A stretch of 4,790 bases of DNA from the IMG/VR virus record IMGVR_UViG_2531839439_000012, positions 1-4,790 of that record, one strand, 5' to 3'. Positions within the stretch are counted from its first letter, which is position 1, and each line of letters begins with the position of its first letter. Shown piece after piece: positions 1 to 4,790 of this stretch. A program made the translations under genes and the position numbers. Origin of the DNA: a virus (taxonomy: Duplodnaviria > Heunggongvirae > Uroviricota > Caudoviricetes). A model generated the notes under the pieces. The model was not told the DNA's origin. It saw only the letters and a list, made by a program, of their open reading frames with translations, and searched no databases.

Positions 1-1
1 A

Positions 2-1051
2 CTGGTCAATGACCCGCGGGCCGTCACGCTGCATATTTCACCGGATATCGATGAACGGGAATTTATTACCCGTTATCTCGGTAATATGAATATCAGGATA
101 AGCCGTAAAAAGGGCGTTGATTATATTTACAGTCATACACCTGCCGCACCAGAGGAGCCGCTGAAATCCCTTGTTTACACGCCCCGTTACCGGACAGTGG
201 AGTATCTGCATCAGGCGCTTTCCGGTCTGGGTCAGCTTCCGGCCGCACAACAGCCGGTTCAGGGGGCAAACGGTGAGCAGACATGGCAGGCGGTCAGCAG
301 TGGTACCCGGTTCATCAGTGCATCCGGGGATGTGTTTGTGTTCCGGGGAACGGCCCGGGAAGTTGAGCTTGTCCGGCAGCTTCTGCCGCAGATTGACGTC
401 AGGGCACAGGAGGTTTCGGTTGCCGGGTATGTGTTTGAGGTCCAGACCAGTGAGCGTAACGGTTCAGGTCTGGCGCTGGCCGCAGAGCTTTTATCCGGTC
501 GTTTCAGTATCACCATGAGCAGCGCATCGGGGCTGGATAACTTTATTCGCCTCAGCACGGGGTCTGTTGATGCAATGTATGAGTTATTCAGGACCGACAG
601 CCGTTTTCAGGTGGTCAGTTCGCCACGTCTGCGCGTTATCTCCGGTAAGGAGGCGGTTTTCAGCGTGGGGTCTGATGTGCCGGTTCTGTCATCAGTGTCA
701 TGGCAGGATAAGGTTCCGGTGCAGTCCGTGGAATACCGCAGCAGCGGGGCTATTTTTCGGGTAAAACCCACCGTGACGCAGGATGTGATAGGTCTGGATA
801 TCGTTCAGCAGCTGAGTAACTTTGCAAAAACGGATACGGGGGTGAATAACACGCCAACGCTGATAAAGCGCGAGGTGTCCACGTCGGTGAGTCTGAATGA
901 CGGTGATATCATTGTGCTGGGCGGACTGGCGGAGAACAAGACATCAAAGGCGCGGACAGGGCTTTCATTTCTGCCGGATGTGTTTGGTTCAGACTCTGAT
1001 GAACGTGCGAAAACCGATATCATCGTCGTTCTTCAGGCCCGGCGGGTCTGA
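2..1051 (+). CDS. Secretin-family outer-membrane channel protein (phage pIV / T2SS GspD / type IV pilus secretin-like), C-terminal ~350 aa; 5' end lies upstream of window
   Basis: Frame is open from position 2 with no in-frame stop. The ATG at 86 has no Shine-Dalgarno and its N-terminus (MNIRISRKKG...) is not a signal peptide, so the true start is probably upstream. The C-terminal ~170 aa carry secretin-domain hallmarks: FQVVSSPRLRVISGKEAVFSVGSDVPV, VEYRSSGAIFRVKPTV, NNTPTLIKREVSTSVSLNDGDIIVLGGLAENKTSKARTGLSFLPDVFG, DIIVVLQARRV. Stop TGA at 1049-1051. Family assignment is from recalled motifs, not a search. Confidence 0.85.
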   Translation: MVNDPRAVTLHISPDIDEREFITRYLGNMNIRISRKKGVDYIYSHTPAAPEEPLKSLVYTPRYRTVEYLHQALSGLGQLPAAQQPVQGANGEQTWQAVSSGTRFISASGDVFVFRGTAREVELVRQLLPQIDVRAQEVSVAGYVFEVQTSERNGSGLALAAELLSGRFSITMSSASGLDNFIRLSTGSVDAMYELFRTDSRFQVVSSPRLRVISGKEAVFSVGSDVPVLSSVSWQDKVPVQSVEYRSSGAIFRVKPTVTQDVIGLDIVQQLSNFAKTDTGVNNTPTLIKREVSTSVSLNDGDIIVLGGLAENKTSKARTGLSFLPDVFGSDSDERAKTDIIVVLQARRV

Positions 1052-1449
1052 GTGTGTGATGATGTCCGTCAGGACATGTAAGGCGGCATGATGAAGTTTC
1101 ATGTGACGCAGATGTCAGCCCGCCGAAACCGGGGAGAACGTGTATATGTCACGGGACAGCGCAACGCGCCGCCTGCCAGACCGCCTTTTAGCGGGCATTC
1201 ACCGAGACGAGCGGCGCAAGACGGGAGTCGGACAGTCATTGATGAAGCCGTTCGATGGAATTGATGACTGACAGGCCGTCTTTTTGAGCCGGAATTTTCA
1301 AACACAGACCCTGATGTGTTATCAGCGGTAATGTTTTACTCGTTACAATTTGCGCACTCTGTTATGTGGCAGTGGACTGGTACATACGGAGGCGGACATA
1401 ACGTTGGTGGAGACGACCATCCACAATTCATTACCTTAATTTTACCAGC

Positions 1450-1487
1450 GCGCCTTATAGTTACCTGATTTATAAGGCGCTTTTTTT
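1450..1487 (+). terminator. Rho-independent terminator (10-bp perfect stem GCGCCTTATA / TATAAGGCGC, 11-nt loop, T7 tract)
   Basis: Stem left 1450-1459, loop 1460-1470, stem right 1471-1480, then TTTTTTT 1481-1487. On the opposite strand the stem is not followed by a T-run, so it is oriented for + strand transcripts. Confidence 0.65.
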
Positions 1488-1525
1488 CTTTCTTGTGTTT
1501 CCTGCAGTCAACAGAACCAGCCTGA

Positions 1526-1547
1526 TCTTATGACAGTGCGCATAAGA
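1526..1547 (+). promoter_or_regulatory. Inverted repeat TCTTATG-N8-CATAAGA (possible operator or protein-binding site)
   Basis: TCTTATG at 1526-1532 and CATAAGA at 1541-1547 are exact reverse complements separated by 8 bp. The site lies between the terminator and the TMP gene. Confidence 0.25.
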
Positions 1548-1577
1548 TTCATTACGTTAAAAACGACATGGGTATAT

Positions 1578-1616
1578 ATCAGTACTGATTTTACTGGAAA
1601 AACTGGATTTTCAGTA
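1578..1616 (+). repeat. 12-bp perfect palindrome ATCAGTACTGAT overlapping phased TACTG/ACTGG repeats separated by A4/T4 tracts
   Basis: ATCAGTACTGAT at 1578-1589 is its own reverse complement. ACTGA 1584-1588, ACTGG 1593-1597 and ACTGG 1602-1606 are direct repeats at exactly 9-bp spacing, with an inverted copy CAGTA at 1612-1616. The intervening TTTT/AAAA tracts are phased near one helical turn. Confidence 0.4.
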
Positions 1617-1769
1617 TCAATCCCAAAGAAGTATGGCTAATGCAGCTTTATAAGCAATTGATTCTATTAAGCGATGTTTTTTGTGATTGGTTGAAGCAAA
1701 CCTGAACACGAAGTCACTGAAGCGGCAATAAACTGTTTCATGGCGGAATTATTAGAGTAAAGAACAATC

Positions 1770-1804
1770 GGAGGTATCCGCACAACGCGGATATACAGGA
1801 CATG
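1770..1804 (+). promoter_or_regulatory. Structured translation-initiation region of the TMP gene: SD GGAGG (1770-1774), then a 7-bp stem-loop (1775-1793), then 8 nt, then ATG 1802
   Basis: TATCCGC (1775-1781) and GCGGATA (1787-1793) are exact reverse complements around loop ACAAC. GGAGG is 27 nt from the ATG in linear sequence, but folding would leave an effective spacing of about 8 nt. No other in-frame start lies between the upstream stop (1718-1720) and 1802. Confidence 0.3.
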
Positions 1805-3703
1805 AGTAACACAAACGTAGGTAGAATTTATTATGAGGTTGATGCGCGCACAGGGAAGCTATTAACCGCAGGGAAACAAGCTGACGACGCATTCGATCGC
1901 ATTGAACGCGGCGCAAAGCGCGCTGATAACTCAATCAACAAACTGAATACGACAATCAGCAAACTGGCGGCGGCGGTTAACGTTGGCCTGCTAATGATGG
2001 CGGCTAAACGCTTTATTGAAATCGCGGACAACGTAAAACTACTACGCGCCCGTGTATCCCGGCTATCCGGTAGTCTGGTTGAAGCTAAGGCTAATTTTAG
2101 CGGCATTCTTGAGATCAGCAAGCGAACTGGCATGAAGATTGAGGATACTACGAAGTTATGGGAAAACCTTACTTCAGCTTTGTCTGATTCAAACGCTACC
2201 AGGGGCCAGATCTTACAGTTGACAGAGACACTACAGCAGATCGGGCGTATTGGTGGTAGTTCATCCGAAGAAGCCGCAAACGCCTTGCGACAGTTAGGGC
2301 AATCTATTAACGGCGGGATTGTCCGTGCTGAGGAATTTAACAGCATCCTGGAGGGTATGCCGGAGCTATGGCGGCGCGTAGCAAGTCAGATGGGGATCTC
2401 AATGGGTGAGCTACGTCGCCGCATGTTGGATGGCAAACTGACGGCTGAGGATGTAGTAAATGCAATCCTGAAAGGATCAGGCGAAATCGAAAAAGAATTT
2501 AACAAGCTGCCGACAACCACGGAACAGGCAATGACAGAGCTATCAACAAATTTTAGCCTGTTACTGGAAACCATCGACCAGACGCTGCATGTTACTGAAC
2601 TGGTCGGTCGCGGTATTAAAACGCTGGCTGATTATTGCCGCGAGCTATCCGGCTGGTTTAAAACGCTGAAATCTGATTCTGCGTCATTGGCTGATAAGTT
2701 ATGGACACTTGCCGCAGCCTTTGAGCCGTTTGTGCCGGGCCTTGATTTATTCCGCGCTCAAGCCAAACAAACCGACTTCTTAGGCGCAGCGCCAGACAAT
2801 CAATCTACGGGTTTTGTGTCAACGCTACCGACACAGCAGGCCACCACTGATATTAAGCTGAAAGACAATGGCGGTGGAGGTGGCAATAAACCGAAACGCG
2901 CGCAGAAAGATCCGGCAGAAGAATCGCTGAAACGGAAACGCGCAGAACTGGAACGACTTAACCAGGGCTTTGCTGAGGGTAGCAAAGAGGCTGAAATGTG
3001 GGACGCCGTTCAGGAAATGGGCGCTAACGCAACGGCAAAACAGGTTAGTGAGATGAAAAACCTTGCGCACCTGATTTACGAAACAAACGCCGCGCGTGAG
3101 CATCAAATCGAACTGGAAGAAAAAGCAAAACAGCTTAATGAGCAATTTAATCCCGTTGATGCGCTCAAACAACGCCATGCCCTTGAAATGCAACAGGCTG
3201 ATGAGCTATTCAACAAACAGATGATTAACGAGGAAACGCTAAACGCGCTTAAACAACAGCACGCAGAAGAATTGCTTGCCTCGCAGTGGGAACAATTCCG
3301 GGCGCAAGGTGGGATTAATGGCCTGATTGGTGACATGGCTGATGGCCTGAGTGGTGGCGCTACAAATGCCGTTGTCGGCCTGCTTAATGGTACGCAGAAC
3401 CTGGAAACCGCTTTCGCCAATATCGGGACTACCATTCTCGGAAAAGTGGTGGGAAGTATCGCTGAGATGGGCGCTGAATACGTCAAACAAATGATCTTAA
3501 GCGAGGCAGCCAGCGCCAGCGCAATGAGCGGACAAGCGGCAACAGGCGCATCAATCGCATCATCAATGGCCCCGGCAGCAGCGGCGACAGCTACCGCGAC
3601 AATGGGGACGGCCCCGATGGTCGCAATGTCAGCTATCAGCGCCTTGATGGCTGGCATTACTGGCTTGTTTTGGCGGTGGTCGCTACAACGGCGGCGCGGT
3701 TAA
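1802..3703 (+). CDS. Phage tail tape measure protein-like (N-terminal TMP domain, K/E/Q-rich coiled-coil, Gly/Ala-rich hydrophobic region); frame as given ends prematurely at 3703
   Basis: 633-aa ORF. Residues ~150-230 (LRQLGQSINGGIVRAEEFNSILEGMPELWRRVASQMGISMGELRRRMLDGKLTAEDVVNAIL) match the conserved tape-measure N-terminal domain as I recall it. A long charged helical segment (KRKRAELERL...QQHAEELLASQWEQFRAQ) is followed by a Gly/Ala/Ser-rich hydrophobic segment, as is typical of TMPs. The ATG at 1802 is the first start after an in-frame stop at 1718-1720. Confidence 0.85.
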   Translation: MSNTNVGRIYYEVDARTGKLLTAGKQADDAFDRIERGAKRADNSINKLNTTISKLAAAVNVGLLMMAAKRFIEIADNVKLLRARVSRLSGSLVEAKANFSGILEISKRTGMKIEDTTKLWENLTSALSDSNATRGQILQLTETLQQIGRIGGSSSEEAANALRQLGQSINGGIVRAEEFNSILEGMPELWRRVASQMGISMGELRRRMLDGKLTAEDVVNAILKGSGEIEKEFNKLPTTTEQAMTELSTNFSLLLETIDQTLHVTELVGRGIKTLADYCRELSGWFKTLKSDSASLADKLWTLAAAFEPFVPGLDLFRAQAKQTDFLGAAPDNQSTGFVSTLPTQQATTDIKLKDNGGGGGNKPKRAQKDPAEESLKRKRAELERLNQGFAEGSKEAEMWDAVQEMGANATAKQVSEMKNLAHLIYETNAAREHQIELEEKAKQLNEQFNPVDALKQRHALEMQQADELFNKQMINEETLNALKQQHAEELLASQWEQFRAQGGINGLIGDMADGLSGGATNAVVGLLNGTQNLETAFANIGTTILGKVVGSIAEMGAEYVKQMILSEAASASAMSGQAATGASIASSMAPAAAATATATMGTAPMVAMSAISALMAGITGLFWRWSLQRRRG

Positions 3704-3995
3704 CGGTGGCAATCTTTACAGGGTTGGTGAGCACGGTGTCCCTGAGTTATTTACCTCTACTGGCGGGAAACAGTACATGATCCCCGGCGAGGGTGGACGA
3801 GTTACACCGGGCCGCGATCTGGTTGGCAGTGGTGGCGGCATCACACTGAACGTAACAAACAACATCCAGGCGACAAACGGCTGGACTGAAGACGACTCAA
3901 AAGCGTTGCAACAGACTATAGAAAACACAGCAATGCGCCTGATGCAGCGCGAGTCGCAAAGACCTGGAGGCATGTTACAACCACGGCGGCGTTAA
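3672..3995 (+). CDS. C-terminal segment of the same tape-measure-like protein, in the +1 frame (frameshifted continuation); the 6-frame track shows its ATG-initiated part as 3777..3995
   Basis: The frame with codons at 3672, 3675, ... is open from 3648 to the TAA at 3993-3995. It encodes GGGRYNGGAVNGGNLYRVGEHGVPELFTSTGGKQYMIPGEGGRVTPG..., which resembles the conserved TMP C-terminus (compare phage lambda gpH ...GNLYRLMRGY... and the common ...YRVGE.GPEL... pattern). Both frames are open across 3648-3703, and the junction sits at the T4 run 3668-3671. Confidence 0.6.
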   Translation, partial: GGGRYNGGAVNGGNLYRVGEHGVPELFTSTGGKQYMIPGEGGRVTPGRDLVGSGGGITLNVTNNIQATNGWTEDDSKALQQTIENTAMRLMQRESQRPGGMLQPRRR

Positions 3996-4165
3996 CCAAA
4001 TCCCACGCCAGGGGGATAGACTGGCGGACCTTCAAAGACGGTCGCACACCGTGTTTAACATAATTTATTGTTTTTTGCTTGCTCTTATTATTGCAGCCGT
4101 TAGAGTTGGCGTGGCAGTTTTTCACCTGTTTCGCGTGTTGCTGTGTTTTTGGGGAAGAAAAACAA

Positions 4166-4261
4166 ATGAGAAGGCTTATATACCTGGTATTTATGCTATT
4201 TGCTATCGGGCAAGCCATAATTTTTATCACAATGCTGATCTGTCTGATGCTCTTTAGTTAA
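4166..4261 (+). CDS. Candidate small hydrophobic membrane peptide (31 aa: MRRLIYLVFMLFAIGQAIIFITMLICLMLFS)
   Basis: ATG at 4166 is preceded by GGGGAAG (4151-4157) at about 8-nt spacing. The peptide has a basic N-terminus (RR) followed by one predicted transmembrane helix. It is the internal-start version of the 60-aa ORF 4079..4261. I recognise no homolog, and short ORFs in AT-rich DNA are often spurious. Confidence 0.25.
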   Translation: MRRLIYLVFMLFAIGQAIIFITMLICLMLFS

Positions 4262-4790
4262 CTCCACCAGGATCCGCGCCGGGCTTTGCTATACAGACCA
4301 ATCACTCTTAATATAAGCTATTGATTCTTCTTAATTATAACCGCGCGTTAGAATTAACCTTCCCGCCATAAACGCTCCTACGCAAAAATCCCTCACAACT
4401 ACCCTGTCAATTTGCCAGATTTCACGTACACGCGCCCATATCCCCGCTACCGGATACACGCCCGCTTATACCGGACACCGGATAAACAAAGGCCCAGGTA
4501 GTTAGCAACCTACCCAGGCCCCGCGCATGGTTTTAATGCCATCATTATTAAGCATGCTAATACTAATCAAATCATAATTAGCACAACTTATAATCGAACA
4601 GAAAACACACAAACCAGATAATGATTTTTTCTGGTTATACTTATCTAAAAAAGTGGTATAGGATGTAACTTATTATTTTGTAAGGATAAATTTATTGCGT
4701 GGTAAGATGAACAGGCTTGTGCACCTCCCGAAAAACACGCGAAAATCAAAGTGTTCTTTCTTTTTTTGTTTTTATTTTTTCATTTTCTCT

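Follow-up and report, generated by a model that had tools for sequence, protein, structure and literature searches.

A 31-codon hydrophobic reading frame as candidate payload of an accessory cassette in CPZ-55-type islands of Escherichia coli

The locus and its 31-codon reading frame

The DNA considered here is a stretch of 4,790 nucleotides (positions 1 to 4,790 of the IMG/VR virus record IMGVR_UViG_2531839439_000012), which we refer to as the window. From base 1535 onwards it shows 99.5% identity to Escherichia coli TOK-001, and it represents an E. coli island of the CPZ-55 type, in which the gene for a tape measure protein (TMP) is followed by a short, AT-rich accessory cassette. Within this cassette lies an open reading frame (ORF) of 31 codons, here termed ORF-B, which may specify a small membrane peptide and is the main subject of this account. 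The features on which the argument turns are:

4166..4261, plus strand: ORF-B, 31 codons, from ATG4166 to a TAA at 4259-4261; conserved core of the cassette
4151..4157, plus strand: Shine–Dalgarno (SD)-like sequence GGGGAAG, 11 nt before ATG4166
4051..4165, plus strand: region A, the leader of ORF-B ('ORF-A', with a GTG start); a 5' untranslated region (UTR) or a short hydrophobic upstream ORF
4034..4375, no strand assigned: the AT-rich accessory cassette, present or absent between related islands

The product of ORF-B (MRRLIYLVFMLFAIGQAIIFITMLICLMLFS, 31 aa) has an MRR N-terminus and then a 27-residue hydrophobic helix, and AlphaFold2, given the single sequence, returned one continuous helix from residue 2 to residue 30 (predicted local distance difference test score, pLDDT, 95.9). 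This agrees with the original prediction, made from the sequence alone, of a peptide with a basic N-terminus and a single hydrophobic helix; the coordinates that it gave for the 31-codon ORF and for an overlapping GTG-initiated ORF in another frame (4051..4257) were exact.

Might such a frame simply reflect the T-richness of the DNA? The grand average of hydropathy (GRAVY) of the ORF-B product is 2.04, compared with −0.02 and −0.22 for the other two plus-strand frames of the same stretch, and T residues are distributed over its three codon positions as 6/21/9 (19%, 68% and 29%; permutation p = 0.00015), a periodicity strong enough to imply that the hydrophobicity is frame-specific and goes beyond mere T-richness. 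Not one of 5,000 dinucleotide shuffles of 3996-4790 gave an ATG-initiated ORF of at least 28 aa with a GRAVY of at least 2.0, and when the T-rich core (4034-4305) was shuffled alone, a comparable hydrophobic ORF appeared in 0.06% of 20,000 cases. The SD sequence, which had been judged plausible, is a moderate match: its duplex with the anti-SD sequence (−5.5 kcal/mol) ranks ORF-B among the best ~16% of the start-codon contexts that the window contains, the starts of the competing frames being weak, and the corresponding sequence in islands at the second chromosomal site of the family (the purU type, described below), AGGGAAG, gives −5.8 kcal/mol.

Distribution and conservation

The core segment of the cassette was found in 49 of 5,426 complete E. 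coli genomes (about 1%), at one copy per genome and at two chromosomal sites, and in a further eight E. coli-like metagenome contigs. ORF-B is intact in the 21 copies that were aligned as DNA, free of gaps in 49/49 complete genomes and intact in 8/8 metagenome contigs, and this holds for every type of island, at the eut site and at the purU/tyrT site, short and long alike. Only two sites within it are variable, 4175 (L4F) and 4256 (G31S), and across the whole of 4152-4265 just two positions vary among the 49 genomes. For comparison with the surrounding DNA, segregating sites were counted in 11 eut-site islands with homologous flanks:

3996-4050: 5/55
region A: 3/115
ORF-B: 1/96
4262-4305: 3/44
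4306-4436: 19/131

Against 27/230 in the flanks, ORF-B (1/96) has about six-fold fewer variable sites (p = 0.0008, in a test that is rough, the sequences being related), and region A is also less variable than the flanks (3/115; p = 0.004). Among 25 distinct products of the GTG frame, from more than 200 contigs, the stretch corresponding to ORF-B was unchanged except for a truncation at 4256, with variation both before and after it; the third codon position of ORF-B is the first position of the GTG frame, so that changes there would nearly always alter a residue of the latter. To judge from these alignments, the ORF-B element is clearly either constrained or very recently spread.

Searches for relatives elsewhere were negative. 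The 60-aa and 68-aa frames that overlap ORF-B (see the next section) had only E. coli copies among 5.8 billion proteins, a 65-member protein cluster existing for the product of the GTG frame; phmmer with the 31-aa peptide against 1.84 billion representatives retrieved one E. coli protein containing the peptide and nothing else; and a gapless degenerate DNA pattern, which preserved the layout of hydrophobic and polar residues while permitting any hydrophobic substitution, gave 0 matches in the GTDB species genomes (one each) and IMG/VR and, in metagenomes, matched eight contigs, all E. coli-like. Phages and plasmids contained no blastn or tblastn match to the segment, which speaks against a packaging or recognition site common to such elements. 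No family was found for the peptide frames in Pfam, NCBIfam or PHROGs (E ≤ 10) or in PADLOC (0.01), nor any small RNA (sRNA), antitoxin or other family at the locus in Rfam, and we found the peptide or its sequence in no paper.

Competing reading frames

Two further plus-strand frames overlap ORF-B:

4051..4257, plus strand: 68-aa ORF with a GTG start, ending with a TAG at 4255-4257, in another frame than ORF-B
4079..4261, plus strand: TTG-initiated extension, 60 aa, which prolongs the ORF-B frame upstream

The original prediction considered the true frame uncertain, on the grounds that the GTG frame is hydrophobic as well. This is so of the part within region A, but not of the part that overlaps ORF-B, and the uncertainty can now be settled in favour of ORF-B. 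In the majority of eut-site islands the GTG frame continues across ORF-B, out of frame with it, to an end that differs with the type of island, giving lengths of 68, 86, 93, 105 or 106 aa, and the Prokaryotic Genome Annotation Pipeline (PGAP) has recorded it as a hypothetical protein of 86-106 aa in MB52, MB19, 14EC029 and OW1E2. In the window, in TOK-001 and in the island locus L015 (island loci fetched for comparison bear L numbers), it is cut by a TGG>TAG change at 4256, the same change that gives G31S in ORF-B, and in L006, L007, L016 and L019 it is frameshifted. Region A holds two T-runs, 4071-4076 and 4145-4150, both of them indel hot spots. In the purU-site islands an additional T in the second run causes ORF-A to end ...CFLGKKNK, with a TGA that overlaps the ATG of ORF-B (ATGA); in AR_0061 two additional Ts in the first run join GTG4051, by way of the third frame, to ORF-B as a 70-aa ORF, and MDK9L1 shows the same length difference of +2 and so probably has the same arrangement. 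The TTG-initiated version was rejected because of a CAG>TAG change at 4115 in L004, L006, L007 and L016. With the GTG frame broken by a stop or by indels, and the TTG extension by a stop, ORF-B from ATG4166 is the only frame that is intact in every copy.

Could the GTG frame nevertheless be the real gene, and ORF-B its shadow? The PGAP calls and the 65-member cluster would fit such a gene, as would two synonymous changes within its first seven codons. Against this, it is cut at codon 69 in the window, TOK-001 and L015 and frameshifted in all purU-site copies and AR_0061, its C-terminus changes with the type of island, the part that overlaps ORF-B is random-looking as well as not hydrophobic (GRAVY −0.22), the SD sequence of GTG4051 is weak (−3.4 kcal/mol) or, in the purU type, absent (+1.2), and no family is matched; we regard this explanation as most improbable. 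Region A by itself also does not appear to be an independent conserved protein gene. Its changes over all the data comprise about six that are non-synonymous (N3D, L10H, A22V, L26M, L26Q and R36G), two that are synonymous and one in-frame deletion of 9 nt, a pattern that gives, as far as such comparisons go, no sign of protein-level selection, and ORF-A was rejected as an independent conserved gene on this pattern, on its three frame arrangements and on the lack of an SD sequence in the purU type. A 104-aa ORF on the minus strand (3916..4230) was likewise rejected, because it mirrors the T-rich strand as an A-rich shadow, enters the variable 3' end of the TMP gene and is shifted by the same indels.

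The arrangement in AR_0061 raises another possibility, that region A and ORF-B are the parts of a decayed gene for a two-helix membrane protein of ~70 aa, split by homopolymer indels and now a pseudogene or a phase-variable gene. Two hydrophobic stretches do flank a basic junction (GKKNK/MRR or GEEKQMRR), both T-runs have length variants, and +TT gives AR_0061, and probably MDK9L1, a continuous ORF from GTG4051 to the ORF-B stop. The fused length variant is however rare (2/49 genomes), the fusion passes through the least protein-like frame (CFACCCVF, T-rich at codon position 1), which in four other copies contains a stop, runs of T5-T8 are short for phase variation, and a pseudogene would not hold ORF-B at a variability ~6x below that of its flanks. 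We therefore think a split gene very unlikely.

The accessory cassette and its island

The cassette is bounded by, or lies close to, the following features:

1802..3995, plus strand: TMP gene of the island (phrog_1107, E 3e-98); the TOK-001 and PI6 annotations name its product a tape measure protein
4006..4026, plus strand: hairpin CGCCAG-N9-CTGGCG, a perfect 6-bp stem, 11 nt past the TMP stop; −11 kcal/mol in both variants
4295..4305, plus strand: CAGACCAATCA, with which the widely shared core ends on the right; a second copy is present at the island's right end

The TOK-001 counterpart of the island is inserted between eutB and eutA, where the cryptic prophage CPZ-55 integrates (PMC6379469). 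Related islands contain intZ, and the genes of the family determine an integrase, helix-turn-helix (HTH) proteins, an HNH endonuclease and a full TMP (L001, L002, L005, L007, L008, L018), with a small-terminase-like protein in some islands (phrog_1482, 6e-15); in the loci fetched, no capsid, other tail or further virion genes were annotated. The family occupies two chromosomal sites, eutA/eutB (the CPZ-55 site) and purU/ychJ-tyrT, and has the appearance of a phage-satellite-like element equipped with a tape measure of its own. We found no paper that describes such islands, or that connects CPZ-55 with satellites or with a tape-measure gene. That ORF-B is downstream of a TMP gene, as had been proposed, is borne out, the upstream gene being a genuine tape measure gene. 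In the window it is frameshifted: compared with TOK-001, there is one additional T within a T-run at about 3665-3668, which splits it into ORFs at 1802..3703 and 3777..3995, and 12 nt belonging to a direct repeat near 3535 are deleted in frame. This copy is either a pseudogene or the subject of a homopolymer sequencing error.

The TMP stop is separated from the right end of the island by ~800 nt, an interval in which TOK-001 has no annotated gene, and it is here that ORF-B is situated. In the island of O157:H7 PV15-279 the cassette is exactly missing, the end of the TMP gene and the downstream sequence being the same and the junction consisting of GGACCT joined to ACGCGAAAAATCCC, and in USMARC-49610 it is replaced by an unrelated filler of ~100 nt. 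Its G+C content is 0.37-0.47, compared with 0.52-0.62 in the TMP gene; this difference, and an occurrence at one position that varies between closely related islands, are among the criteria by which phage 'morons' are recognized. The core that is widely shared is smaller than the cassette, extending from 4047 to 4283 or 4305, where island types diverge. It is found behind greatly different TMP alleles (compare MB52 with the window), is the last feature before the right end in short islands, and is kept in islands at the purU/ychJ-tyrT site that are riddled with insertion sequences (IS), in which IS elements stand in the place of the TMP gene and no TMP is annotated. Its persistence in islands without an annotated TMP makes it probable that its function is not tied to TMP or to the virion.

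The hairpin at 4006-4026 belongs to the TMP side of the junction: it is kept in islands without the cassette (L018, L022), has no U-run, and carries all three of its variable positions (a deletion in the 4011-4015 G-run, 4015 and 4017) in the loop, and the cassette starts right behind it. On the other side, CAGACCAATCA recurs by the eutA-side end in TOK-001 (L001, about 16030-16045), where it is followed by ACCGGATACACAGCCGGATATAATCC, and in the short islands L009 and L019 the two copies are joined, with the ~750 nt between them missing; to judge from these arrangements, this suggests either that recombination between the repeats has deleted the interval or that there is a hot spot for insertion of cargo. 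The core has no internal repeats, and the idea that it is a mobile repeat or a miniature inverted-repeat transposable element was rejected, as it is present in single copy per genome and has no terminal inverted repeats.

Two further observations concern this end of the island. A 28-nt direct repeat occurs twice in tandem (4427-4454 and 4455-4482; 75% identical, with ACCGGA(T/C)A motifs), and after it comes a strong 13-bp hairpin (4489-4522) that has the form of a terminator only when read on the minus strand; a recombinase or regulator may bind to these sequences near the island end. In 14EC033 (L021 3100-3830), an IS1 truncates the cassette at about 4106 and has removed ORF-B plus eut-side DNA up to maeB, so ORF-B can be lost, at least along with a larger deletion.

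What might ORF-B be?

In our view there is roughly an even chance that ORF-B is a true gene, missed by annotation, whose product is an orphan peptide that crosses the inner membrane once, and that it forms the payload of a moron-like cassette in which region A serves as leader. The peptide would be oriented with its MRR N-terminus facing the cytoplasm (according to the positive-inside rule) and with its helix running to the C-terminus. ORF-B would be the selected payload of the ~340-nt AT-rich cassette (4034-4375), which would be built like a moron and have been inserted just behind the hairpin that trails the TMP gene of CPZ-55-type islands, and the 115 nt of region A would be either an untranslated 5' region containing a promoter or a short, dispensable upstream ORF which, if translated, would be coupled to ORF-B in one lineage via the ATGA overlap. 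We infer translation, membrane insertion and function alike. The peptide would be expected to act in the inner membrane of the resident cell and not in the virion, its most plausible roles being to modulate or block some process at the membrane, for instance the entry of phage DNA (HK97 gp15, discussed below, provides the analogy) or to exert a membrane-damaging addiction or abortive function. The earlier suggestion of a small membrane protein is supported, though not to the point of proof, by the frame-specific periodicity, the SD sequence, the intactness of the frame and its ~6x lower variability.

The complete lack of synonymous changes is one of several points that weigh against the idea of a membrane-peptide gene, another of which concerns the following feature:

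4266..4286, plus strand: small G+C-rich hairpin past the ORF-B stop, a weak terminator candidate, degraded in the window and uncalled by the terminator scan

Conservation with synonymous-site variation, which the original prediction had put forward as a test, was looked for across the copies: ORF-B shows 0 synonymous and 2 non-synonymous changes, whereas the rate of the flanks would predict ~3 variable synonymous sites. As only non-synonymous changes are seen, its conservation alone is not proof of protein-level selection. Overlapping signals, the very recent spread by recombination of a small unit under selection, and sampling are all possible reasons. The distance of 11 nt from the SD sequence to the ATG is at the long end of the usual range, and PGAP has annotated ORF-B in no genome. 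As far as the collections searched can tell, the peptide is an orphan with no homologue outside E. coli, so that no deep comparison is possible. No sigma-70-like promoter scoring at least 9/12 was found on either strand in 3800-4790 (shuffles give 2.0), although consensus scans can miss real promoters. Finally, the hairpin at 4266-4286 is weak and is not maintained: the consensus form gives −11 kcal/mol, with its U-run consumed by the stem, the window gives −3.8 and the purU type −4.3, and of four variable sites two keep the pairing and two break it.

Some of these points would be equally expected if the locus were conserved as a non-coding element (a site for regulation or recombination, an RNA signal or the 3' UTR of the TMP operon) in which ORF-B is incidental. 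Conservation is uniform over the codon positions, the frames of the adjacent region A are unmaintained, no promoter was found, and the element stands at a recombination-prone junction near the island end, beside repeated motifs. On the other hand, the period-3 distribution of T and an ORF with a GRAVY of 2.04 are both very unlikely at this base composition, there is no RNA structure that is stable or matches a family, no similar DNA was present in any phage or plasmid searched, and the core lacks internal repeats. A purely non-coding role is unlikely, if worth keeping in mind.

The original prediction also likened the peptide to type I toxins. ORF-B would then be the membrane-depolarising toxin of a type I toxin-antitoxin or hok/mok-like addiction module, controlled by the upstream frame together with an antisense RNA, and the cassette would persist in decaying islands since its loss kills the cell. 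The size and architecture of the peptide (31 aa, one helix) match those of small hydrophobic toxins; the upstream frame overlaps ORF-B fully in the eut type and ends in ATGA in the purU type, an arrangement that resembles the coupling of mok and hok; nucleotide conservation reaches the synonymous sites, as with RNA-level signals that overlap an ORF; and the cassette is retained in IS-degraded islands. Among sites that score 8/12 as promoters, two are on the plus strand (4035-4064 and 4064-4091), and a third, on the minus strand at 4246-4217, lies inside ORF-B and could be a weak antisense promoter, to which may be added a perfect minus-strand TATAAT at 4339-4334. The TATAAT, however, is not accompanied by a −35 element and is not part of the core common to all island types, and no site on either strand reached 9/12. 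No toxin family in Pfam or NCBIfam (Hok, Ldr, TisB, Ibs, Fst and others) matched at E ≤ 10, nor did any sRNA or antitoxin in Rfam; the predicted RNA fold of 4040-4310 is no more stable than that of shuffled sequence (z-score +0.35, and +1.33 for the minus strand), with no structured leader; and the scan found no convergent terminator adjoining ORF-B, the only terminator-like hairpin called being the minus-strand one at 4522..4489, which would stop transcription of rightward origin before it reached the cassette. ORF-B is, moreover, in single copy per genome, and was removed by IS1 in 14EC033 without obvious constraint. The likeness to type I toxins has thus gained no specific support, and we consider a module of that kind distinctly unlikely.

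A side result of these scans is that 4129-4155 (the leader and SD sequence of ORF-B, TTTCGCGTGTTGCTGTGTTTTTGGGGA) is reverse-complementary to TCCCGAAAAACACGCGAAA at 4726-4744, ~570 nt further on, over two segments, one of 11 nt (100%) and one of 13 nt (92%). Of the two arms, the right one is outside the cassette and has diverged in MB19-type islands; the complementarity could represent a fold-back of a long transcript, or chance.

A bolder version of the membrane-peptide idea, to which we would give only a small share of the probability, is that the locus is a self-contained membrane-peptide module without a family, either a new type I-like toxin or a 31-residue exclusion peptide, which is spreading by recombination among CPZ-55-type islands. 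As a toxin, its translation would be gated by the overlapping upstream frame, and RNA or promoter signals embedded in ORF-B would explain the invariant synonymous sites; as an exclusion peptide, its 31 residues would block tape-measure-dependent phage DNA entry.

Comparison with known systems

The phage HK97 provides the nearest parallel in function, in the form of gene 15, a moron in the tail operon, adjoining the tape-measure gene, whose product gp15 is a small inner-membrane protein that brings about superinfection exclusion (PMC3594210). The ORF-B cassette is similarly a small add-on unit near a TMP gene, absent from close relatives, deviant in base composition and with a small membrane product (predicted, in the case of ORF-B). 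It differs in that the peptide is much shorter, has one helix and is encoded after the TMP gene rather than before it; in that no Pfam family, including the YebO-like models through which the comparison was made, matched the peptide (E ≤ 10); and in that no promoter or solid terminator was demonstrable for the cassette. An exclusion function would be purely a matter of analogy.

With the type I toxins (Ibs, ShoB, Ldr, TisB, DinQ, ZorO, and Hok with its mok leader) ORF-B shares a length of less than 50 aa and a product that consists of little beyond one hydrophobic helix; as with them, a frame upstream overlaps it or is coupled to it, its nucleotide sequence is very highly conserved, and it is found on a mobile island. 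Unlike them, it has no family match (Pfam, NCBIfam, Rfam), no detected antisense RNA gene, promoter or structured leader, and it is in single copy.

Surveys of small ORFs in E. coli have brought to light a class of single-pass inner-membrane proteins that includes AcrZ, MgtS, CydX, KdpF and YohP. Like AcrZ, MgtS and similar proteins, ORF-B is an unannotated ORF of no more than 50 codons with an ATG, an SD sequence and one predicted transmembrane helix with a positive cytoplasmic end. Those proteins, however, belong to the core genome, are often conserved across genera with synonymous variation, and have demonstrated translation, whereas ORF-B appears from the genomes searched to be an orphan in ~1% of E. 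coli, on a mobile cassette.

Should ORF-B prove to be translated, the accessory genome of E. coli would gain a small membrane protein, an orphan missed by annotation and borne by a tiny exchangeable cassette beside a TMP gene, a type of position known for phage-exclusion and addiction functions. The annotation of the region would also need correction, as the 'hypothetical protein' of 86-106 aa called by PGAP is probably in the wrong frame. The practical value of these points is modest, the element being confined to about 1% of complete E. coli genomes, without relatives elsewhere, and belonging to a general class that is well known.

Other features of the window and of related islands

Another tiny hydrophobic ORF is present in the variable cargo region of some islands (L003 6753-6812, L004 6752-6811 and L022 3419-3481). 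Its product is MKRWEVILLMVMMFVMCID, with the alternative endings ...MYID (in L004) and ...MCIEC, each followed by a stop. Between copies there are two synonymous differences and one non-synonymous difference, and immediately downstream of the ORF come a 62-aa gene and an HTH regulator.

Finally, we draw attention to the left part of the window, bases 1-1534, which is the right end of a filamentous (inovirus-type) prophage and contains, at 86..1051, an ORF for a pIV/GspD-like secretin (Pfam Secretin, 1.4e-25). Other E. coli contain this element as a tandem array that includes replication-initiator, coat and Zot-like genes (L023). Its junction with the island is a dif-like site at 1535-1562, AGTGCGCATAAGATTCATTACGTTAAAA, and since homology to TOK-001 begins exactly there, it appears that the inovirus has integrated into a dif-like site inside the island.

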